Source: a virus
DNA: 43,368 nucleotides
UHGV virus genome: UHGV-1382693
Strand: one strand, 5' to 3'
In this document: in pieces, positions 3,579 to 33,178 of the stretch
Layout of the letters: each line of letters begins with the position of its first letter
Position numbering within the stretch: position 1 is the stretch's first letter
The notes under the pieces: model-generated
The model's database searches: none
What the model was told of the DNA's origin: nothing
The model's input: the letters and a program-made list of their open reading frames with translations, nothing else
Position numbers and translations under genes: made by a program

Positions 3579-4331
3579 ATGGAAGAGATTATAAAAATCA
3601 ATTACGATGCTGAACAGCCGACCGTATCGGCAAGAGAGCTACATCGAACACTTGAAATCAAAGAAAGATTTAGTGTATGGGCTGATAGGCTTTTGAATTA
3701 CTTTGGAAGTGATGAAATGACCAGCGTACTTACGCCTACGGAGGTTCAAAACAACGGCGGTGTGCAGATTAGAGAGCTTCAAGACTATATTGTTTCTGTT
3801 GACACAGCAAAGCATATCTGCCTTATGAGCCGAACAGAAAAAGGCAAGCAATGTCGCCAGTACCTTATCGACTTGGAAAAGGCATGGAATACGCCAGAGC
3901 AAGTCATGGCAAGAGCCTTAAAAGTTGCAGGGCAGACCATCGACAAACTGAAAGGCGAAAACACCATTCTTATAGAAGATGTACAGCGCATGAAGCCGAA
4001 AGAGATATTTGCCGATGCTGTGGCAACTAGCCATACATCAATTCTTATTGGTGACTTGGCGAAGCTGATTAAACAAAACGGCGTAGACATCGGACAGAAA
4101 AGACTATTTTCTTGGTTGAGGGATAATGGCTATCTGATTAAACGGAATGGTTCTGAATGGAATATGCCAACACAACGAAGTATGGAGGCAGGATTGTTTG
4201 AGGTAAAGGAAAGTACAGTGAATAATCCTGATGGTTCCGTAAGAATAAACAAGACTACCAAAGTTACTGGAAAAGGTCAGCAGTATTTTATCAACAAGTT
4301 TTTAAGGAGGGAAAATGGAAGAAATCAGTAA
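3579..4331 (+). CDS. Phage antirepressor (ORF6N N-terminal domain + KilA-C C-terminal domain)
   Basis: ELHRTLEIKERFSVWADRLL...GGVQIRELQDYIVSVDTAKHICLMSRTEKGKQCRQYLIDLEKAW matches the ORF6N/AntA fold. C-terminal KilAC-like region. AGGAGG RBS before ATG 3579. Confidence 0.8.
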   Translation: MEEIIKINYDAEQPTVSARELHRTLEIKERFSVWADRLLNYFGSDEMTSVLTPTEVQNNGGVQIRELQDYIVSVDTAKHICLMSRTEKGKQCRQYLIDLEKAWNTPEQVMARALKVAGQTIDKLKGENTILIEDVQRMKPKEIFADAVATSHTSILIGDLAKLIKQNGVDIGQKRLFSWLRDNGYLIKRNGSEWNMPTQRSMEAGLFEVKESTVNNPDGSVRINKTTKVTGKGQQYFINKFLRRENGRNQ

Positions 4332-20484: not shown

Positions 20485-21717
20485 ATGTTAAGCCCTGATT
20501 ACCTTGCAAGAATCGCAGAAGGAAGCGAAGAAATAGCCTCACAACTCCATACATACATTATTCGTCAGATAATAGACCGCATGATGATACGCATAGGCCG
20601 CGGCGATGATTGCCTGCTCACCTCATCTGACCGATGGCGCATACATGTATTGCAGGACGCAGGGTATCTGCTGGAGGATATAACAGCAGAGTTATCCAAG
20701 TACACCAAGAGGCAGGAGAAAGAGATTAAAGCGGCTATGGAGGAGGCCGGGATAAAAGCTCTGGAATACGACCACAGAATATACGAGGCCGCCGGCCTGT
20801 CTCCTATGCCCCTGACGCAATCCCCGGCCCTTATTCGGCTGATGGAACGCAATTACCTGGCAACATTAGGGGAATGGAAAAACTACACTAGGACAACCGC
20901 GCAATCTGCTCAAAGATTATTTATTAACGAGTGCGATATGGCCTATAACAAAGTTATGAGTGGAGCAACATCTTACACACAAGCAGTTAAAGAGGCCGTA
21001 GAAAATGTGGCCAGTGGGGGTATTACACTTGTTCAATATAGAAGTAAAAATACTGGAGATATAAGAAATGACACGATAGAGACAGCTACAGCACGAGCGG
21101 TACGGACTGGTATAGCACAGGCTACGGCGGAAATTACGCTGGCAAGAATGGTAGAAATGAAGTGGGAAGTTGTGCTGGTGTCGGCGCATGTGGGCGCAAG
21201 AAATGTTGGGGGGATACCAGAGAATCATGAACTTTGGCAAGGAAAATTCTACAGTCTCCCGCAATATGGACATAGATTCCCGGATTTCTATTACTCTACA
21301 GGATATGGAGATATTACTGGATTGTGCGGAGTAAATTGTAGGCATAGTTTTGGACCAGGTGATGGAGAAAATAATCCGTATGACCCAATAGACACAGAGG
21401 AAAATCGAAATCAGTACGAAAAAGAGCAACGCCAGCGAACGCTTGAACGCCGCATCCGCAAGACCAAGCGCGAGGTTATGGGCCTGCAAGAGGCCGTAGA
21501 GAAATGCCAGGACAAGGCGGCAAAGTTTGAGCTACAGCAGGCGCTTGACCGGAAATCCTACTTGCTATCCAAGCAGTATAAGGCATATAACGAGTTTTGT
21601 AAGGAGAATAACCTTAGAACTCAGTCAGAGAGATTACAGATTGCCCGCTGGAGCCGTGAACAGGCTGCAAAGGCCAGAGGGGCGGCGAGACGGTATCAAA
21701 ATGCGAAAGGGGAATGA
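20485..21717 (+). CDS. Head morphogenesis protein (SPP1 gp7 / Mu F-like minor capsid protein)
   Basis: Sits after the portal gene. MuF-like central region. C-terminal coiled coil. Confidence 0.7.
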   Translation: MLSPDYLARIAEGSEEIASQLHTYIIRQIIDRMMIRIGRGDDCLLTSSDRWRIHVLQDAGYLLEDITAELSKYTKRQEKEIKAAMEEAGIKALEYDHRIYEAAGLSPMPLTQSPALIRLMERNYLATLGEWKNYTRTTAQSAQRLFINECDMAYNKVMSGATSYTQAVKEAVENVASGGITLVQYRSKNTGDIRNDTIETATARAVRTGIAQATAEITLARMVEMKWEVVLVSAHVGARNVGGIPENHELWQGKFYSLPQYGHRFPDFYYSTGYGDITGLCGVNCRHSFGPGDGENNPYDPIDTEENRNQYEKEQRQRTLERRIRKTKREVMGLQEAVEKCQDKAAKFELQQALDRKSYLLSKQYKAYNEFCKENNLRTQSERLQIARWSREQAAKARGAARRYQNAKGE

Positions 21718-22103
21718 ATTTGAATAGATGGAAACCATATAACCCTAACCCAGTCCGTAATCAGCGTGTAGGCGACTGTGCCATACGTGCAATCTGCAAA
21801 GCAACCGGACAGGATTGGGAAACCGCCTTTGCTGGCGTTATGGTGGTGGCGTGCGAGAAATCAGATATGCCGTCAGCTAACAGCGTGTGGGGGACATATC
21901 TCAGGCGCAACGGGTTTCGGAGAAACATTATACCAGACGAATATCCAGAAGATTATACCGTGGAAGAATTTTCGGCAGACCACCAAAACGGAGTATTTGT
22001 TCTTGGGCTTGATGGTCATGTGGTAACGGTTGTGGATGGATTTTACTGGGACACATGGGACAGCGGTCAAGAAATACCAATATACTACTGGGAAAGGCGA
22101 TAA
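21714..22103 (+). CDS. Papain-like (C39 / BtrH-like) cysteine-peptidase-fold protein
   Basis: GDCAIRAI carries the candidate catalytic Cys, and DGHVVTVVDG the downstream His/Asp. ATGA-coupled to MuF. Confidence 0.4.
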   Translation: MNLNRWKPYNPNPVRNQRVGDCAIRAICKATGQDWETAFAGVMVVACEKSDMPSANSVWGTYLRRNGFRRNIIPDEYPEDYTVEEFSADHQNGVFVLGLDGHVVTVVDGFYWDTWDSGQEIPIYYWERR

Positions 22104-22106
22104 TTT

Positions 22107-22400
22107 ATGGAAACATTAAACTCTATTATGGTTGTATGCGGTTGGCTTATTACTCTTGGAGGCGCAGGAGCCGTAATATACAAATTGTTGCATCCGGCAT
22201 TTAAGCTAAAAAATCGAGTGGATAAATTAGAAATAAATGTGGAAAATGATTATAAATCTATCAAAGAAATAAGAGATATGCAATCTCTTTTATGCCAAGG
22301 AATGATAGCATTAATTGATAATCGTATAACCGGTAACAACATAGAGGGTTTAAAAAAAACCAAAGAAGCTATGATAAAGCATTTGTCAGAAGGTATTTAA
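22107..22400 (+). CDS. Small membrane protein (N-terminal TM + coiled coil)
   Basis: TM segment IMVVCGWLITLGGAGAVIY. AT-rich. Confidence 0.55.
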   Translation: METLNSIMVVCGWLITLGGAGAVIYKLLHPAFKLKNRVDKLEINVENDYKSIKEIRDMQSLLCQGMIALIDNRITGNNIEGLKKTKEAMIKHLSEGI

Positions 22401-22411
22401 GGAGCGTTGCG

Positions 22412-22612
22412 TTGAAGGTATATGACTTTACAGTGCCAGAACTAAACTATTTTCGTACATATTGTAACTTTACGGATGAAGAACGGGCACTGTTTGAGTA
22501 CCGGGCCAAGAACTATCCTTTGGAGTATTGCGCTGAATTAATGAATGTAAGTGTATCCACAGCAAAGAGATTGAGCAGAAAAGTAAACAACAAAATAATC
22601 CGATTATGTTGA
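22412..22612 (+). CDS. Sigma-70 region-4-only HTH protein
   Basis: LEYCAELMNVSVSTAKRLSRKVNNKI looks like region 4.2. AAGGAG RBS. TTG start. Confidence 0.6.
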   Translation: MKVYDFTVPELNYFRTYCNFTDEERALFEYRAKNYPLEYCAELMNVSVSTAKRLSRKVNNKIIRLC

Positions 22613-22636
22613 TACTTGCGTGATACTTTTATAAGT

Positions 22637-22666
22637 CTTTGACGACCTGTCAAGGGCTTATTTTTT
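22637..22666 (+). terminator. Intrinsic terminator
   Basis: CTTTGAC-gacct-GTCAAGG stem followed by gcttatttttta. Confidence 0.55.
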
Positions 22667-22704
22667 ATGGGATAATTGGATTATAAAAGAACGGAGGGGA
22701 TATA

Positions 22705-23175
22705 ATGCCGCAACCATTTATCAATCCAAACTATCTGAATACATATCCAAACGCATATCCTTATCAGCCACAGATGCAACCACCTATGGACCGATTGCAG
22801 CAGCTACAGGCACCATACCAAATGTCGCAACAGACGCAGGTTTCACAGGTCCCGCAGACCAACCAGGGAATATTATGGGTGCAGGGTGAAGCCGGGGCAA
22901 AGTCGTATTTAGTAGCGCCAAGCACATCCATATTACTGATGGATAGCGAAAATGAGTACTTTTATATTAAAACAACAGATGCAGCAGGTATGCCAACACT
23001 CCGCACTTTTGAATATAAAGAGATTGTTAATGGACGGAAAAAGGAATCTACATCGGCTGAAAATCTGGATGAAAAGTATGTTACCAGAAATGAGTATCAG
23101 GATTTAAAGGCAAAATATGATGAATTATATGGACTTTTAGAAACCAGTACAGCACCAACAGGAAAGGGGAAGTAA
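22705..23175 (+). CDS. P/Q-rich N-terminal protein with conserved C-terminal domain
   Basis: GGAGGGG RBS. N-terminal PQPFINPNYLNTYPNAYPYQPQMQPP. Confidence 0.65.
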   Translation: MPQPFINPNYLNTYPNAYPYQPQMQPPMDRLQQLQAPYQMSQQTQVSQVPQTNQGILWVQGEAGAKSYLVAPSTSILLMDSENEYFYIKTTDAAGMPTLRTFEYKEIVNGRKKESTSAENLDEKYVTRNEYQDLKAKYDELYGLLETSTAPTGKGK

Positions 23176-23178
23176 TAT

Positions 23179-23436
23179 ATGAATCCATTATTTAACATGT
23201 TAGGTGGAATGGGTGGAGGTAGCCCAATGGGAGGAATGATTCCTGGGATGGGCGGAGGAAACAACCCCATGCAGATGATACAGAAATTTATGGAGTTTAA
23301 AAACAATTTCAAGGGAAACCCTCAAGAAGAAGTACAGAAGATGCTACAGTCCGGCCAGATAACTCAGCGGCAATTAGACCAGGCCCAGCAAATGGCCCGG
23401 CAGTTTCAGCAGATGCTTAATGGCATGAAAAAATAG
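23179..23436 (+). CDS. Gly/Met-rich small protein
   Basis: GGMGGGSPMGGMIPGMGGGNNPMQM. AAGGGG RBS. Confidence 0.6.
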   Translation: MNPLFNMLGGMGGGSPMGGMIPGMGGGNNPMQMIQKFMEFKNNFKGNPQEEVQKMLQSGQITQRQLDQAQQMARQFQQMLNGMKK

Positions 23437-23490
23437 TACATAAATCAATGCGCATGATTTTGTAAATATATTTTAAAGGAGTAGACAATT

Positions 23491-24207
23491 ATGGATTCAA
23501 GCTATAGTTTAGCAGACATTGCCGCCGCTACAGGAGGAACAAACCGCAACAATGATGGCTTTGGAGATGGCGGCGCATGGTGGATTATTATACTGTTCTT
23601 ATTTGTTTTCTGTGGCTGGGGCAATGGAAACGGCTTTGGAAACAATGGAGCAGGAGGTGCAGGATTGCAGGGATTAGCAACACGTGCAGACATCAATGAG
23701 GGATTTGCCCTCAACGGAATCGAAAATGGTATAAGGGGTATTCAGCAGGGCATTTGTGATAGCACGTATGCGCTGAACAACACCATTACCAGCGGTTTCA
23801 GCGGAGTGGACCGTAGCTTATGCCAGATGGGCTATCAGCTCCATGATTGCTGTTGCCAGACACAGCGCGCAATTGATGGTGTAAATTATAACCTGGCTAC
23901 ACAGTCATGCGATACCAGAAACACCATTCAGACCGCAACTAGGGATATTCTGGACAACAACAACAGCAATACAAGAGCTATTCTTGACTTCTTAACTCAG
24001 GATAAGATTTCTACCTTACAGGCGGAGAATCAAACCCTTAGATTCCAGGCAAGCCAGACTGCCCAGAACGGATTTATTGATGCAGTTGGTAACTCAATCG
24101 TTGCACAGCTTCGTCAGCCGCAGCCTGTACCGGCTTATACGGTTCCAGCGCCATATCCATATGCCTCTAACTGTGGTTGTGGATGCAATACTGGATGCGG
24201 GTGCTAA
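23491..24207 (+). CDS. Membrane protein with Gly-rich region and Cys-rich C-terminus
   Basis: AAAGGAG RBS. TM segment WWIIILFLFVFCGW flanked by G/N-rich sequence. Ends CGCGCNTGCGC. Confidence 0.7.
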   Translation: MDSSYSLADIAAATGGTNRNNDGFGDGGAWWIIILFLFVFCGWGNGNGFGNNGAGGAGLQGLATRADINEGFALNGIENGIRGIQQGICDSTYALNNTITSGFSGVDRSLCQMGYQLHDCCCQTQRAIDGVNYNLATQSCDTRNTIQTATRDILDNNNSNTRAILDFLTQDKISTLQAENQTLRFQASQTAQNGFIDAVGNSIVAQLRQPQPVPAYTVPAPYPYASNCGCGCNTGCGC

Positions 24208-24416
24208 TGAGAAACGAACAGTTTTACGATAATCTTGCTCTGTATGCAACTGCATTGCAAATGATAAATTTGCTTTTGATTGTTGGTGATGTGTCAAATA
24301 ATGATATTATGGAAGCATTGCAACAGGAGAATAAGGAATACATGGAAAAGATTATCGACCAAAACAACCGCATATTGCGTATCTTGTCCGAAAAGGACAT
24401 GTCTACTGAACAGTAG
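24207..24416 (+). CDS. Small hypothetical protein
   Basis: TAATG coupling. 69 aa. Confidence 0.45.
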   Translation: MRNEQFYDNLALYATALQMINLLLIVGDVSNNDIMEALQQENKEYMEKIIDQNNRILRILSEKDMSTEQ

Positions 24417-24478
24417 TATTACACACATGGAAGGGTAGGCATAAGCTTGCCCTTCTGTGCATATAAGGAGGATTTATT

Positions 24479-24877
24479 ATGGCAGATTTTGTAACTGCTG
24501 GGACACAGACTGTTGCAGTCAATGCAAGCGTTCTGTTTGCTGCAAACAGGATATATTCTTGCAATTGTCCAAACATAAGGCATGAGGCACTCTCTGGTAG
24601 GGTAGTTTTGCTTCCTGGCCTGTACCGCGTAGGATTTAACGGAAACTTTTCCGCAGCCGCAGCAGGTGACGTTATTTTTGAAGTACAGCAGGACGGCGAA
24701 GGCATTCCCGGTGCAAGAATTCAGAACACAGTTGCCGCCGGCGCAACAATCAATGGAGCGGCAACTGTAGAAGTAAGGGTGTGCAAACCATGTTGTGCTA
24801 CCCTATCAGTAAAAAACGTTGGAGCCACAGCAGCGGCAGTATCAGACGCTAACCTTGTTGTTAGCAGAATAGGTTAA
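24479..24877 (+). CDS. Ala/Gly/Val-rich beta-rich protein with Cys pairs (structural subunit-like)
   Basis: AAGGAGG RBS. SCNCPN near the N-terminus and CKPCC near the C-terminus. Confidence 0.7.
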   Translation: MADFVTAGTQTVAVNASVLFAANRIYSCNCPNIRHEALSGRVVLLPGLYRVGFNGNFSAAAAGDVIFEVQQDGEGIPGARIQNTVAAGATINGAATVEVRVCKPCCATLSVKNVGATAAAVSDANLVVSRIG

Positions 24878-24889
24878 GGGGGTAAGGCT

Positions 24890-25429
24890 ATGAGCTATAA
24901 GATGATGCAGAATATCCATGAAGAACTGGATAAGATTGCGGAAAAGGGCCTGAACACTAGCAACCTTGAAACCGCATACAAACTGATAGACATGTGGAAA
25001 GACATGGAGAATGTGGAGTACTGGAAGTGCAAAAAAGAGTACTACAATCAGGTAATGGACGAAATGGATGGCGGAGAATACAGCGAAGCGCGCCGCAAAC
25101 GCGACAGCATGGGACGTTATAGCCGTGCTGATGGAATGTCACAGGACTATGATAATGACAGCTCATATCGCGGCACACGCGGAAAACATTACGTCAGAGG
25201 ACACTACAGCCGTGCGACCGGTCCGGCCTATGATGACTACATGAATCAGAAGCAGAGCTACAGAAGTGGTGGAAAAGATGAGGATTGCAAGCGGCGTATG
25301 CTTGCGGCCTTAGAGGAACATATGGACGAACTAACCGAAGAGTTGGGAGAAATGTCAAAAGATGCTGATTGCCGCGAGGAACGGGAAACCATGAAAAGAT
25401 ATATCGAAAAGTTGCGTAATATGATGTAA
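24890..25429 (+). CDS. Charged helical protein, hypothetical
   Basis: AGGGGG RBS. Several Cys residues. Helical heptad-like N- and C-terminal regions. Confidence 0.65.
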   Translation: MSYKMMQNIHEELDKIAEKGLNTSNLETAYKLIDMWKDMENVEYWKCKKEYYNQVMDEMDGGEYSEARRKRDSMGRYSRADGMSQDYDNDSSYRGTRGKHYVRGHYSRATGPAYDDYMNQKQSYRSGGKDEDCKRRMLAALEEHMDELTEELGEMSKDADCREERETMKRYIEKLRNMM

Positions 25430-25462
25430 CAAAAAGCGGTGGGAATAATCTCACCGCTTTTT
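25430..25462. terminator. Bidirectional intrinsic terminator
   Basis: aaaaAGCGGTG-ggaataatct-CACCGCTttttt. 7-bp GC-rich stem flanked by A-run and T-run, sited between convergent operons. Confidence 0.8.
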
Positions 25463-25498
25463 GAAAATGTATTACCAAAAAAATTTGTTTTCTCTCCT

Positions 25499-25789
25499 TT
25501 AAATATGATTCCAATCTAACATAATATGGATTTCTTTTTCTTCATTATTGATTGCACATAGACAGGGTGATTCTTTCCCTTGAATCAGCTCGTTTGGTGT
25601 ATAAGTCCAACCCCACGGAGCCGTCAACACAATGCCGGCCTCTGTCTCGTCACATCCCCATCCTTCTGGCACTGTGTATTCTATTGGTTCGCTTTCTACT
25701 GCTGTTGGATGAGGATTGCCCTCAGTAAATACCGGATGTTTCTCAGCAGCCAAACATCCATAATTTATGTATCCTTTAAATGTTTTCAT
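25499..25789 (-). CDS. Hypothetical protein (last gene of reverse operon)
   Basis: AGGAGGAG RBS 7 nt upstream. 96 aa with WGxxE and WGW motifs. Confidence 0.6.
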   Translation of the reverse strand: MKTFKGYINYGCLAAEKHPVFTEGNPHPTAVESEPIEYTVPEGWGCDETEAGIVLTAPWGWTYTPNELIQGKESPCLCAINNEEKEIHIMLDWNHI

Positions 25790-25801
25790 TTTTTCTCCTC
25801 C

Positions 25802-26218
25802 TTACAATATGGTTTCATGTACCTCGCGCCCTGCCCGCACATTTTCCAGGTAATTGGGGTCTATGCTCTTTGGACAGTACTCATAATCGCTGTCCTCAAC
25901 TCCTATTTTTGCCATTTCGTCATGTATAATTTTAAAATAATCATCATGAGAAAAGTTGCGGGAATCAGAAAATACATTGTAATTTTCCGGTAACAATTTC
26001 TCATAGGCCAAATCTGAAAAATTATTTAAAAGTTTTTTCATCAGACATGGATGAATCAGTTCTTCCAATTGTCTGATGATTAATTCTTCGGCCCAGGGAG
26101 CCGGGTTCCGTTTCCCAGCCTCCCAATCCTCTATGGTCCTTGTTGGTATACCAAGGTAATCAGATAAATCAGATTGTGTCATGTTGGTTTTCGTACGGTA
26201 CTCTTTAATTCTGTTCAT
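25802..26218 (-). CDS. XRE-family HTH regulator with C-terminal domain
   Basis: MTQSDLSDYLGIPTRTIEDWEAGKRNP HTH. AAGGAGG RBS before ATG 26218. Confidence 0.75.
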   Translation of the reverse strand: MNRIKEYRTKTNMTQSDLSDYLGIPTRTIEDWEAGKRNPAPWAEELIIRQLEELIHPCLMKKLLNNFSDLAYEKLLPENYNVFSDSRNFSHDDYFKIIHDEMAKIGVEDSDYEYCPKSIDPNYLENVRAGREVHETIL

Positions 26219-26228
26219 AACGACCTCC

Positions 26229-26540
26229 TTATTTAACATGTTGTATGATGTATTTGGCATCTGTCATTTTTTCTAACTGACCGATAAGGCTTTCAATTCC
26301 GGCCGTGTAACTCTGCGCATCCATCTTACCCCTGGACATCATTATTCCGGCCATCTCGTCTGTCTTAAAAACCTTCTGGACCAGAATATCTTTTGCATAT
26401 GCCACCTGTTTCTCAGTTCCGGTCATTTCCTGGGTAAACATAAAAGCAATGATTTTATGGCAGTCGGCCCGGTCTACCAGGATATTATATCCGTTCAGCT
26501 CGTTTCTCATTTCCTTTGTATTCTCTGCTCGTCTCATCAT
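26229..26540 (-). CDS. Hypothetical protein (first gene of reverse operon)
   Basis: 103 aa. RBS-like AAGGATGGGGG. Upstream promoter with operator. Confidence 0.55.
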   Translation of the reverse strand: MMRRAENTKEMRNELNGYNILVDRADCHKIIAFMFTQEMTGTEKQVAYAKDILVQKVFKTDEMAGIMMSRGKMDAQSYTAGIESLIGQLEKMTDAKYIIQHVK

Positions 26541-26574
26541 TTTTTATTTCCCCCATCCTTTATCTTATGTATTT

Positions 26575-26604
26575 ATTTTACCACGCATTGCGTGGCGTGT
26601 CAAG
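26575..26604 (-). promoter_or_regulatory. Promoter of reverse operon with palindromic operator in the spacer
   Basis: On the - strand: TTGACA(26603-26598)-17 nt-TAAAAT(26580-26575). The spacer holds CCACGCA-T-TGCGTGG (26581-26595). Confidence 0.6.
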
Positions 26605-26685
26605 GGGTAATATTAAAATGTGGGGACGATTATTTTTTGCGAATAAGTTAAAATGAGAGTAGGAATAAACAGAAAGGACTAAAGC

Positions 26686-26871
26686 ATGGTAAAAAACGGT
26701 TGGGTATACTGCCCTATATGTAACAATAAGACCAGGACAAAAATTCGGCCTGATACAGTAGCGAAAAACCTTCCGGTATTTTGCCCTGTATGCAAGAATA
26801 CATCCATAATGAATATTGCAAAAGGAATAGCAAGTGATATGGAAAATGGCGGTTTATCACCTGCCACATAA
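26686..26871 (+). CDS. Com-like Cys4 zinc-ribbon protein
   Basis: CPICNNK...17 aa...CPVCKNTSIM parallels the phage Mu Com zinc ribbon. Confidence 0.5.
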   Translation: MVKNGWVYCPICNNKTRTKIRPDTVAKNLPVFCPVCKNTSIMNIAKGIASDMENGGLSPAT

Positions 26872-26874
26872 TAA

Positions 26875-26940
26875 TTAGAGCCAGACGCCAGACGCAGAGC
26901 CAAACAGATTACAGCAATGTAGTTTGTTTGGCTTTTTCTT
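26875..26940 (+). terminator. Terminator-like hairpin carrying a conserved 26-nt motif (copy 1)
   Basis: TAGAGCCAGACGCCAGACGCAGAGCC then AGCCAAACA...TGTTTGGCT stem plus tttttctt. Confidence 0.5.
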
Positions 26941-27139
26941 ATATTTGACCTCCCTCCTATAGCACATGTCCTTAAAAGAAACAGGTTCTAGCGCATAGCG
27001 TGAACAGCCTGGAGGTTGAAAAGCGGATGCAATTTCCGGCATGTGCGTTTTTGGACAAGTCAAGTCCTACAAAATGGCAACCGTTGGTGGACGGTTACAC
27101 ACCTACAAATAACCTAATAACGGAAAAGGAGAATCATCA

Positions 27140-27757
27140 ATGAAAACCGAAGAATTAAAAGCGCAGGGATTGACAGAGGAACAGATATCTTTTGTCATGG
27201 CTGAAAATGGAAAAGACCTTAAAAAGTTGCAGAAAGAAAATGACAATCTGACATCCGAACGGGATACCTGGAAAGAAAAAGCAGAAGCAGCAGAAACAAC
27301 GCTGAAAGGCTTTGAAGGGGTTGACCTTGAGACGATGCAGAAAGAACTGTCTGACTGGAAACAAAAGGCAGCAGATGCAGAAAAGAATGCCCAGGAACAG
27401 CTCTATGAGCGTGATTTTTCGGACGCTCTGAAAACGGAATTTGAGGGTATTAAGTTTTCTAGCGAAGCGGCTAAGCGTGCAATTATGGCAGAAGTCAAGG
27501 CAGCCGGATTAAAACTTAAAGATGGTAAAATCCTGGGGCTGAATGACCTTTTGTCCCAAATGAAAGAAAAGGACGCTTCGGCATTTATTGATGATGCGCA
27601 GCAACAGGAACAGCAGAACATGGCGAGATTTACGGCGCCGATAAAAGGAACGACCGGAGGAGCGCTGACAAAATCAGATTTTAAGGGTATGAGCCTGGAT
27701 GCAAAAATTGAATTAAAACAGAAAAATCCAGAACTTTACAACAATTTGAAAGGATAA
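27140..27757 (+). CDS. Scaffolding protein (Phage_GP20-like)
   Basis: MKTEELKAQGLTEEQISFVMAENGKDLKKLQ. Helical, charged. Precedes the major capsid gene. Confidence 0.75.
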   Translation: MKTEELKAQGLTEEQISFVMAENGKDLKKLQKENDNLTSERDTWKEKAEAAETTLKGFEGVDLETMQKELSDWKQKAADAEKNAQEQLYERDFSDALKTEFEGIKFSSEAAKRAIMAEVKAAGLKLKDGKILGLNDLLSQMKEKDASAFIDDAQQQEQQNMARFTAPIKGTTGGALTKSDFKGMSLDAKIELKQKNPELYNNLKG

Positions 27758-29860: not shown

Positions 29861-30124
29861 ATGGACATTACAACATTGGGAACATGTGTGGCTATTGTGG
29901 CTCTGAGCTATGTGGTTGGTCTTGGATGCAAGGCTGCAAAGAAAATACCGGACGAATGGATTCCGGTTATTATGGCTGTTGTGGGTGGTGTTCTTGGCGC
30001 GCTTGGTATGGGAACTATACCAGACTTCCCGGCATCGGACTACATCACGGCCGTAGCAGTTGGAGCTATGTCTGGCCTTACGGCTACGGGAATTAACCAG
30101 ATGTATAAGCAGGCTAAGAAATGA
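29861..30124 (+). CDS. Holin-like small membrane protein (3 TM + basic C-tail)
   Basis: TM1 LGTCVAIVALSYVVGLGC, TM2 WIPVIMAVVGGVLGALGMG, TM3 ITAVAVGAMSGLTATGI, tail NQMYKQAKK. Confidence 0.55.
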   Translation: MDITTLGTCVAIVALSYVVGLGCKAAKKIPDEWIPVIMAVVGGVLGALGMGTIPDFPASDYITAVAVGAMSGLTATGINQMYKQAKK

Positions 30125-31595: not shown

Positions 31596-32087
31596 ATGGC
31601 AAGCAAAACAACACATTTTAAAGGCTTTTCCGTTGTTGATGGAGAGATAAAGATTACGCTCAAATTATCCCGGTTTGATAAACAATTTCAGCATGCTCAA
31701 TATGAGCTTGACGGAAATGTAATGAATAGTATGGTTCCTTTTATGCCTATGATTACAGGCGATTTTGTGGATGTTACCAGGGCCGCAAGTGCTGCAATAC
31801 AAGGGATTGGAAAAGTGTATGCTGCCTATGGACCTGCTGGTCGTTTTTTATATCAGGGTAAAACTATGGTTAGCGTTGTTACTGGTAGTACCTGGGCTAT
31901 AAAGGGTACTAAAAAGGTATTAGTAAGCCAATATGGAGGAAAAACCAAAGCAAAAGAGGATTTACAGTATACAAAAACAGCGCATCCTAAGGCGCAGGCT
32001 AAATGGTTTGATGCAGCCAAAAAAGCAGACGGTAAATCATGGATAAAGCAAGCCAAGAAAACGGCTGGAGGTGGAAAACGTGGGTGA
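31596..32087 (+). CDS. Minor capsid / neck protein (HK97 gp10-like tail-completion)
   Basis: Position. Basic C-terminal region. Confidence 0.5.
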   Translation: MASKTTHFKGFSVVDGEIKITLKLSRFDKQFQHAQYELDGNVMNSMVPFMPMITGDFVDVTRAASAAIQGIGKVYAAYGPAGRFLYQGKTMVSVVTGSTWAIKGTKKVLVSQYGGKTKAKEDLQYTKTAHPKAQAKWFDAAKKADGKSWIKQAKKTAGGGKRG

Positions 32088-32586
32088 TGAACGAAAACCA
32101 ATCGGGAAAGATGCAAGCGGTTATGATGTATTAACGACCGCGGTAAAGGCGTTGCTTAATCAATTCCCAGGTTTATATGAATATGAAGCTGTTAAATTTG
32201 AAGAACTAGAAAAAGATTACGGAATTGCATTTTCGGCAGATAACGGAGCTTTAATCTTTTCTGAAACAGAGGACGTGATTGGAGGAGTTCACCAGACCTG
32301 CCAGTATCCTTTCTATATTATATACCGTACATCATCCACAAAAGAGCGCCAGAAAATGAGCATACAGGAATTTCTTGATACATTTGGAAAGTGGTTATGC
32401 CGGGAGCCGGTTGTGATTGATGGGAGTGAGCAACGATTATCAAATTATCCCACATTATCCCAGGGAAGGAAGATAACCAAAGTTACCCGTGATAACTCTT
32501 ATGGCCTGGAACCTCAGGAAAGTGGTGTGCAGGATTGGATACTTCCGGTATCGATAGAATATAAATATGATTTTGAAAGATGGTAG
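32080..32586 (+). CDS. Minor capsid / tail terminator-like protein
   Basis: Position before the major tail gene. GTG start after GGAGGTGG. Confidence 0.5.
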   Translation: MGDERKPIGKDASGYDVLTTAVKALLNQFPGLYEYEAVKFEELEKDYGIAFSADNGALIFSETEDVIGGVHQTCQYPFYIIYRTSSTKERQKMSIQEFLDTFGKWLCREPVVIDGSEQRLSNYPTLSQGRKITKVTRDNSYGLEPQESGVQDWILPVSIEYKYDFERW

Positions 32587-32635
32587 AGCCAGACGCTAAG
32601 ACGCAGAGCCTTGTGTGATGGCTCTATTTTTATTT
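32584..32635 (+). terminator. Hairpin carrying the conserved 26-nt motif (copy 2) before the tail operon
   Basis: TAGAGCCAGACGCTAAGACGCAGAGCC-ttgtgtgat-GGCTCTA plus tttttattt. Confidence 0.5.
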
Positions 32636-32650
32636 GAAAGGAGAAAGACA

Positions 32651-33178
32651 GTGGCAACATGGACTTATGCCGATGGAGAGGCAAAAAGAAAAGACTTTAT
32701 GGTCTTTTGGATAACTGATGGAAGCACCACAAATATCACAAAAGATAAACTTGAAATTATTGGAAAAGGCGTTGAAGATATGCCGATTTCGATGAATCCA
32801 GAGACGGAAGAAAGCCAGGATGTGCTTGGAAATAATAACTATGACATCACCGGCTATGCAGAAAGCATGACAGTGGACCCAACCAATGTATCTGGAGAAA
32901 GTAAATACGCTCAGAAGATAGATACGCTCATGGAAGAAAGGGCAACTCTGTCAGATTTGAGATTGAAATATCTCTGTGTAAAGCGATACAAAACCGATAG
33001 TACCGGAAATATGCGTGCATGGGTGCAGGAGGGTGTTGTTGAGTTGGGAGACTTTGCAGGAGGCCTGAAAGGTGTTTCTGCAACGCATACGGTGCACTAT
33101 GTAGGTGATAGGACTCTTGGCGCTGTAAACCCTACAACGATGACTTTTACGGCTGATGGAGCTTCTTTGTCAGAGTAA
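32651..33178 (+). CDS. Major tail protein
   Basis: GTG after AAAGGAG. ~175 aa. Position before the chaperones and tape measure. Confidence 0.65.
   Translation: MATWTYADGEAKRKDFMVFWITDGSTTNITKDKLEIIGKGVEDMPISMNPETEESQDVLGNNNYDITGYAESMTVDPTNVSGESKYAQKIDTLMEERATLSDLRLKYLCVKRYKTDSTGNMRAWVQEGVVELGDFAGGLKGVSATHTVHYVGDRTLGAVNPTTMTFTADGASLSE

Follow-up and report, generated by a model that had tools for sequence, protein, structure and literature searches.

A terminator-fused RNA motif shared by a gut phage and Tn916-family elements, and its possible reading by the Orf6/KTR zinc ribbon as an antitermination switch

In the passive antitermination and attenuation systems, such as LicT/BglG-RAT, HutP, ANTAR, TRAP and PyrR, a conserved RNA site, some 25-30 nt long, shares nucleotides with the 5' arm of one particular intrinsic terminator, and every regulated terminator carries one copy of its own. 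Phage elements of RNA or DNA (lambda nut, HK022 put, Q/qut) also carry late transcription past terminators; there, one promoter-proximal site modifies the polymerase for all terminators downstream. The Com protein of phage Mu, a 62-aa CCCC zinc finger and translational activator, binds CC(N)2-3GAG in a 6-nt hairpin loop that adjoins and overlaps the translation-inhibition hairpin (TIS) of the mom mRNA, and systematic evolution of ligands by exponential enrichment with Com yielded two GAG(N)2CC units around a 3-4-bp stem (PMC6483171). Here, we describe an RNA motif that stands on two terminators of the virus genome UHGV-1382693 (43,368 nt, analyzed over its whole length and termed the window in the following), together with the small Cys-rich zinc-ribbon protein KTR that is encoded directly in front of the first of them. 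KTR belongs to the family of Orf6 from the conjugative transposon Tn916; orf6 is listed as a gene of unknown function, and in the Tn916 model read-through past orf6 is needed to make antisense orf9 RNA (PMC7288454). We propose, with a probability of somewhat less than one half (about 45%), that the motif is an RNA switch on terminators which is read by the KTR zinc ribbon and leads to antitermination. Such a switch would work like the known protein-RNA hairpin switches (Com/TIS and RAT-type), yet the features that define these classes do not place it in either of them.

Two exact copies of the motif, AGAGCC-AGACGC-N(1-2)-AGACGC-AGAGCC, are present in the window, and only these two, both on the + strand. 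Copy 1 (26877-26901; AGAGCCAGACGC-C-AGACGCAGAGCC) is composed of AGAGCC (26877-82), AGACGC (26883-88), the spacer C (26889), AGACGC (26890-95) and AGAGCC (26896-26901). Copy 2 (32585-32610; AGAGCCAGACGC-TA-AGACGCAGAGCC) has the same parts at 32585-90, 32591-96, 32597-98 (spacer TA), 32599-32604 and 32605-10. A T immediately precedes each copy, AGAGCCAGACGC is exact at 26877-26888 and 32585-32596, and the copies agree at 24 of 24 specified positions, so that the spacer of 1 or 2 nt is the sole difference. By arithmetic from the sequence, about 9e-10 chance recurrences of a given 24-mer are expected in 43 kb on either strand with spacers of 1-3 nt. A covariance model of the motif, run on the window with filters off, returned only copy 1 (46.1 bits) and copy 2 (47.2 bits) at E about 1e-10; no third, degenerate copy was found in the window, the next-best match having E = 1.2. 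A preliminary description made from the letters alone had already reported the repeat, and the exact pattern confirms it; of its two intervals the second (32584-32610) was right, while the first (26875-26900) was off by 1-2 nt.

Copy 1 is non-coding and begins 5 nt past the TAA TAA stops of the KTR gene (26686-26871, +; 61 aa; PF14205, E = 1.3e-18, profile positions 2-43 of 54). The TAG stop (32584-86) of a tail-completion gene (32071-32586, +; phrog_3266, E = 2.3e-22), which is not related to KTR, falls partly within copy 2, and the frame differs from that of KTR genes. The placement before the scaffold/capsid and before the tail genes, which the preliminary description had proposed, agrees with the Pfam and PHROG matches. 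The first head-morphogenesis gene past the first terminator is a scaffold gene (27140-27757, +; PF06810, E = 1.7e-28), with the capsid gene also downstream, and behind copy 2 the tail block opens with a probable major tail protein gene (32651-33178, +; phrog_3099, E = 5.6e-42; GTG start 7 nt past GGAG) and includes, farther downstream, an 821-aa tape-measure-like open reading frame (ORF).

Outside the window the motif is widespread. An exact-pattern scan of IMG/VR gave at least 115 loci in at least 10 unrelated flank contexts. At many of these loci an ORF reads across the motif and ends in ...VIK-EPDA(K/Q)TQSR*; such ORFs are KTR proteins, and the final nine codons of most KTR genes (EPDAKTQSR*) constitute the motif. 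To our reading of the codons, the peptide is not what is being kept. In a set of 54 distinct KTR genes, for whose retrieval the C-termini were left out, every synonymous codon occurs at the invariant zinc-ribbon residues (Arg all six, Pro and Thr all four), and in the remainder of the gene GAA for Glu and GAT for Asp make up 71-98% of cases. The last nine codons are frozen and GC-rich (GAG 50/50, CCA 53/54, GAC 49/52, ACG 40/43, CAG 48/48, AGC 45/45, CGA 44/46), and only the two spacer positions vary within them. The motif is kept behind stop codons (copy 1 of the window, L119, L172, L194), where the spacer itself contains a stop (EPDA*), where a spacer length of 1, 2 or 3 nt shifts the frame, and behind an unrelated tail gene in another frame (copy 2). 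Judged from these comparisons, selection is shown to act on the nucleic acid and not on the peptide. At L165 a precise 20-nt deletion between both AGAGCC direct repeats has removed part of the 3' end of a KTR gene; the repeats are thus deletion-prone, and the intact motif must be kept by selection. At L122, L128 and L139 a degenerate coding copy is followed, 15-20 nt on, by a perfect half-motif (AGACGCAGAGCC-GATAA) and a terminator, which gives the impression that the RNA element arose anew behind a coding copy that was drifting. Since the motif overlaps coding sequence in most members, screens of intergenic regions would miss it.

The association of motif and KTR gene was counted from the protein side. 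In bacterial genomes queried with KTR proteins trimmed before the C-terminus, which avoids circularity, the motif stands at the 3' end of 56 of the 78 distinct KTR genes, from diverse Clostridia; three more have it within 1.2 kb and four have a half motif. Phage loci were found through the KTR protein alone. Here, the motif lies within -35 to +5 nt of the stop in 58 of 79 KTR genes and about 160 nt downstream in four more, a second copy follows 4.1-6.2 kb farther on in 44 of the 79 loci, and not a single case is on the opposite strand. Thus, relatives carry both copies at the same junctions, as the preliminary description had suggested one might look for. Its idea of an element special to the late operon of this phage has to be given up, as the motif is the conserved 3' end of Tn916-orf6/Cys-rich-KTR genes in Clostridia, tetracycline-resistance elements and phages. 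The ORF that comes next after tet(M), tet(O) and tet(S), Tn916 orf6, encodes KTR, and motif and terminator are found there too; the orf6 junction has literally the same motif and terminator sequence, likewise after tet(S) and tet(O). Locus L277 has the order tet(M), orf6 (KTR), motif, terminator and convergent orf9, a helix-turn-helix (HTH) gene. Unlike Tn916 Orf6, the KTR of the window belongs to a phage subfamily that has lost the EPDAKTQSR tail, its motif is non-coding, and a second copy stands behind a tail gene. On clostridial chromosomes KTR is found behind diverse cargo (ABC-2 permeases, methyltransferases, MATE, MFS, beta-lactamase), often followed by small Sigma70_r4 proteins as in Tn916-like elements. 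In the literature searched, no paper gave orf6/KTR or the motif sequence a function, and the sequence itself matched primers only.

Two satellite-like elements, L023 (11.9 kb) and L027 (13.4 kb), carry the motif without the gene. They encode an integrase, cI/cro-like HTH proteins, a DnaB helicase, a tape-measure-like protein and terS, and have no capsid, portal, terL or KTR gene; their nucleotide identity is 87% to the terS region and the tape-measure end of the window and 96% to window positions 3694-3853. Motif and hairpin are located between the replication module and the tape-measure-like/terS module, an arrangement to be expected of a cis site that a helper would serve in trans. The same satellites, together with some other contexts without a KTR gene in cis, would also suit a site bound by a metabolite, an ion, a host protein or RNA polymerase in place of KTR, and the lack of a detectable motif at 15 of the 78 bacterial KTR genes makes clear that the pairing is not obligatory. 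Miniature aptamers embedded in terminators exist (HMP-PP/thiS class), which adds to such a riboswitch-like explanation. We still hold it to be very unlikely, since the neighboring genes are functionally unrelated (ABC transporters, tet genes, phage heads and tails), which speaks against a metabolite logic, only two Watson-Crick pairs are proven, and there is no Rfam match even at E = 10. The Rfam 15 covariance models, applied around both copies at gathering thresholds and at E up to 10, returned nothing on the motif; RAGATH-21 and GP20-b were found nearby, the remainder being noise.

The two proven pairs are in the center of the motif. In the numbering of the form with the 2-nt spacer (positions 1-26), C10-G19 and G11-C18, the CG of each AGACGC, covary. 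All of 105 distinct sequences are paired at these positions (100%, no disruption), with three changes of CG to UA, three of GC to AU and three cases of GU, and the observed score was reached by 0 of 500 shuffles. Over all loci the central dinucleotides are CG/CG in 130 contexts, UG/CA in 6, CA/UG in 4, CG/UG with a G-U wobble in 5 and AA/UU in 10, and there is one mismatch; the AA/UU cases are a divergent phage lineage with AGUGCC-AGUAAC-AA-AGUUUC-AGUGCC. According to this covariation, the center of the motif is a 2-bp hairpin with the loop C-N(1-3)-AG(A/U), flanked by two AG(A/U)GCC hexamers. In copy 1 this predicted mini-hairpin occupies 26886-26894 (+; C26886-G26894 and G26887-C26893, loop CCAGA), and in copy 2 it occupies 32594-32603 (+; C32594-G32603 and G32595-C32602, loop CTAAGA). 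Two further pairs, G4-C25 and C5-G24, could lengthen it beyond a symmetric internal loop (CAGA/CAGA). In canonical KTR genes an outer helix, TTATC/GATAA, encloses the motif, and the third position of the Val codon covaries with the stop (TAA with GTT, TGA with GTC).

The G-U pairs and the fixed strand speak for RNA, and the motif is very probably a functional RNA element. This bears on the possibility of a DNA-level site, either an operator or a direct-repeat hot spot for recombination and module exchange. The motif does stand at the boundaries of variable cargo and conserved backbone and of phage modules, the L165 deletion between the AGAGCC repeats is precise, and concerted A-to-U/C changes in the AGACGC units could be repeat conversion. 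A site of this kind is nevertheless highly improbable, because the orientation relative to transcription and T-run is strictly fixed, the loop differs in length (1 to 3 nt) among members, the halves form neither a palindrome nor a dyad, unlike usual recombinase or operator sites, and the G-U wobble covariation in five contexts is sensible in RNA and not in duplex DNA. The concerted changes concern the A at position 3 of both AGACGC units (A/A to U/U, C/C or U/C; e.g. L025, L033, L171, L021 and L233-L238), i.e. motif positions 9 and 17 (alignment columns 23 and 32), which do not pair with each other in the proposed hairpin. The explanation could be a non-canonical interaction, repeat conversion, or two protein subunits that make equivalent contacts.

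Several described elements were compared with the motif and set aside. The end of a diversity-generating retroelement (initiation site of mutagenic homing/variable region) does not fit, as the two copies in the window do not share the 100-nt flanks required of a template/variable region pair. An integron attC or oriT-like site would have a dyad or core-site symmetry that is missing here, and the strand-specific T-run and the G-U covariation point to RNA. There is no pair of hexaloop hairpins as in ANTAR targets, and there are no closing stems around each ACGC as in guanidine-II-like ACGR loops; the covarying pairs form one hairpin. Translation-coupled attenuation was dismissed as a general mechanism because members differ in whether the stop codon precedes the motif, falls within it or follows it.

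In each copy of the motif the last AGAGCC opens the 5' arm of a terminator-like hairpin, and the fold prediction that was run on both contexts agrees with the preliminary description in this respect, including the pairing of AGAGCC with GGCTCT at copy 2. The predicted terminator T1 (26896-26940, +) is a long hairpin with a 5' arm that starts in the second AGAGCC, followed by the T-run GGCTTTTTCT; the terminator scan found a stem of 18 pairs (26896-26935), with a minimum free energy of -24.9 kcal/mol and z = -5.5. The predicted terminator T2 (32605-32635, +) consists of AGAGCC (32605-10), a 9-nt loop and GGCTCT (32620-25), then ATTTTTATTT, and was missed by the scan only for its loop limit of 8 nt. 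Both T1 and T2 have the G+C-rich hairpin and the U-tract on the transcribed strand that make up the sequence definition of an intrinsic terminator. The alternative pairing that had been suspected exists as well, as the minimum-energy fold of copy 2 uses the first AGAGCC in place of the second. In relatives nearly every instance of the motif is followed by a hairpin and T-run. The distal stem varies freely with compensating changes, and the second hexamer covaries with the 3' arm of the terminator (AGAGCC with GGCUCU, AGUGCC with GGCAU). By this covariation hexamer 2 is the pairing partner of the terminator 3' arm, and hence motif hairpin and terminator base would be mutually exclusive. When the motif hairpin is enforced in folding, T2 vanishes and T1 ends several nucleotides short of the U-tract. 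The ribosome binding site (RBS) of the next gene starts at 32637, directly behind T2. There is no room for a promoter between T2 and the first tail gene, and thus the tail genes need read-through of T2.

A rival explanation would be a constitutive terminator cassette, in which the motif aids folding, efficiency, 3'-end stability or processing to a stable 3' fragment without any regulator in trans, and which spreads by recombination at module junctions and fixes the ratio of upstream to downstream transcript. The motif always stands directly on the terminator, T2 with its short 6-bp hairpin could be naturally leaky, the copy-2 junction is a mosaic boundary, and no trans target was found; the complement GGCUCUGCGUCU has 22 matches in the window at up to 3 mismatches, where 18 are expected, which is noise. 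We regard the cassette as unlikely. Ordinary terminators neither need nor conserve a 25-nt unpaired purine-rich leader, here at near 100% identity across phages, integrative and conjugative elements (ICEs) and plasmids of different phyla, and the linkage to the KTR family and the parallel to Com would be left unexplained. The mosaic at the copy-2 junction (window 32611-32650; e.g. L001, L028, L030, L076) joins one tail-completion gene to either of two downstream tail genes that are unrelated to each other, and each of these is found with both variants of the terminator loop, which suggests recombination right at the element in junctions of the copy-2 type. At T1, an element TTTCTTATATT(T/C)G...CCTCC is conserved just past the terminator (window 26936-26955), and also past the terminators of L068, L070, L086, L229 and L249, in lineages that otherwise have differing flanks. 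It has no fit to the sigma-70 consensus and could be an unconventional late promoter or an anti-Shine-Dalgarno (SD) element.

The KTR protein has 61 aa with a C-x2-C-x20-C-x2-C arrangement, and its AlphaFold2 model is an all-beta zinc ribbon (predicted local distance difference test score, pLDDT, 76.5). The window KTR matches phrog_6417, annotated as 'translational regulator', with E = 1.7e-4. The same family is matched by 21 of 25 KTR proteins of relatives (best E = 3.4e-6) and by Mu Com (E = 2.8e-10). KTR appears to be distantly Com-like, with marginal homology. The likeness to Com and the mom TIS extends to the genetic layout and the RNA. Like Com, KTR is a CCCC zinc-ribbon protein of roughly 60 aa encoded immediately upstream of its RNA target, in this case a candidate target. 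In both RNAs the hairpin is very short, and its loop of about 6 nt reads C, 2-3 free positions and a purine triplet that contains GA. The stem is flanked by repeated GAG..CC-like units, and the site adjoins and overlaps a second, inhibitory hairpin, which the protein presumably opens in the Com case. The consensus differs, AGAGCC / C-N(1-3)-AGA here versus GAG(N)2CC / CC(N)2-3GAG for Com, and most KTR members, unlike Com, have the motif within the 3' end of the coding sequence for the protein itself. The inhibitory hairpin here is an intrinsic terminator upstream of the RBS in the window, unlike the mom TIS; an RBS trap is found only at L011 and L035 (with the variant L003). At these loci the motif precedes a tape-measure gene without a classical terminator, and hexamer 2 (AGAGCCG) and a CGGCUCU some 35 nt farther on form a hairpin that encloses SD and AUG of the tape-measure gene in a mom-TIS-like layout. 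In comparison with the passive antitermination systems, the RNA site overlapping the terminator 5' arm and the own copy for each terminator are shared, whereas no CAT-PRD, HutP, ANTAR, TRAP or PyrR protein is present and the putative reader is a zinc ribbon; the motif RNA is neither a RAT hairpin nor an ANTAR hexaloop pair and has no Rfam match. The resemblance to nut, put and qut is passage of terminators in phage late transcription, with the difference that one copy is fused to each terminator here, also outside phages. KTR had also been considered as an Ogr/Delta-like late activator, an idea from the Cys spacing, which was dropped because there is no Ogr_Delta match in Pfam. No evidence was found for the tandem-HTH or sigma-like proteins that the preliminary description had named as readers, having overlooked the KTR gene upstream of copy 1; KTR is a far better candidate than these.

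We therefore have, on the side of observation, a motif that is strand-specific, structured, fused to terminators and tied to KTR genes. Of the switch that had been envisaged in the preliminary description, the functional element on terminators, with covariation and alternative pairings fitting a protein-read terminator/antiterminator, holds up, while its restriction to the late operon does not. In the model that we propose, each copy would be a cis-acting RNA element built onto an intrinsic terminator, and the 61-aa KTR encoded just upstream of copy 1 would bind the motif RNA. The bound conformation would include the mini-hairpin, possibly G4-C25/C5-G24 and, in canonical KTR genes, the TTATC/GATAA outer helix. 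Binding would keep hexamer 2 from GGCUCU, the terminator would end short of the U-tract and the polymerase would read through. T1 would then decide whether transcription of the KTR gene continues into the scaffold/capsid genes, and T2 whether that of the connector genes continues into the tail genes. KTR as the ligand is suggested by the linkage of KTR and motif, the KTR-less satellites and the Com parallel; an effect of binding on termination is our conjecture; and the antitermination direction has two arguments, the position of T2 and the Tn916 model with its need for read-through past orf6.

A number of points weigh against this model. In the nearest-neighbor model the motif hairpin alone has about 0 kcal/mol, versus -25 for T1, and would on this calculation need a ligand. 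The candidate outer pairs between the hexamers, G4-C25 and C5-G24, never vary, and the TTATC/GATAA outer helix is absent from both window copies. The 15 bacterial KTR genes without a detectable motif have to be counted here as well, as do 17 of the 79 phage KTR genes that were missed by the first, stricter pattern, several or many of which carry a divergent AGUGCC version downstream, behind one extra small ORF. The satellites may have inherited the junction merely by recombination. A promoter of some type between T1 and the scaffold gene could make read-through of T1 unnecessary. For the protein, the profile alignment of KTR and Com places the CxxC knuckles in register, with an hhalign probability of only 19% (E = 0.0012); the KTR matches include no Com family in Pfam, and Com's own phrog_13819 is not among the PHROG matches; a Foldseek search of the KTR model against the PDB gave only non-significant generic zinc ribbons, and a PDB sequence search gave none.

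Finally, binding could equally favor termination. KTR or another factor might bind the motif with another output, promoting termination in an autoregulation as in TRAP and PyrR or acting on translation or mRNA decay. The canonical site within the 3' end of the protein's own mRNA would suit negative feedback, Com is a translational activator (PMC6483171), and the L011/L035 hairpin encloses SD and AUG of the tape-measure gene. Neither of the hairpins in the window covers an RBS, the tail genes behind T2 must be transcribed through it, and strengthening T1, which has 18 bp already, seems pointless; we consider this output to be quite unlikely.

Tn916 is the reference conjugative transposon for tetracycline resistance, and the run-on from tet(M) into its excision and transfer circuit is only postulated. 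This very step is where the present analysis locates a structured, conserved RNA together with a protein that is a candidate for binding RNA, and a Pfam family of unknown function (PF14205) gains a plausible role. If the antitermination model is true, the switch in Tn916-family elements controls whether transcripts of the resistance or cargo gene continue into the antisense-orf9/orf7-orf8 excision circuit, and in phages of gut Clostridia it times the expression of head and tail genes. The RNA site is nearly identical everywhere, so that ICEs, phages and KTR-less satellites in one cell could then cross-activate one another. This suggests a regulatory 'currency' common to phages, satellites and ICEs in gut Firmicutes. 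That Orf6/KTR and the motif form a widespread protein-RNA antitermination switch in Tn916-family elements and gut Clostridia phages is a tentative generalization, which we rather doubt than assert.

The remaining observations concern the surroundings of the motif in the window. A near-identical record was not found among GenBank phages, and the window has no tRNA or tmRNA. Between T1 and the scaffold gene lie two Rfam matches back to back, RAGATH-21 (26961-27047, 83.5 bits) and GP20-b (27053-27116, 40.9 bits). Many IMG/VR phages keep the order KTR gene, motif, T1 and RAGATH-21; no paper describing a function of RAGATH-21 was found in the literature searched. An ORF of a holin family (29861-30124; Phage_holin_5_2, E = 2.8e-21) is located amid the head-to-tail connector genes and not in a lysis cassette. 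About 5 kb of non-structural genes (21714-26651) separate terminase, portal and MuF from the KTR and scaffold genes, and this block holds Gly/Cys-rich proteins and two minus-strand genes, one of them an XRE-type HTH gene (25802-26260). The latter is divergent from KTR, whereas Tn916 orf9 is convergent with orf6.

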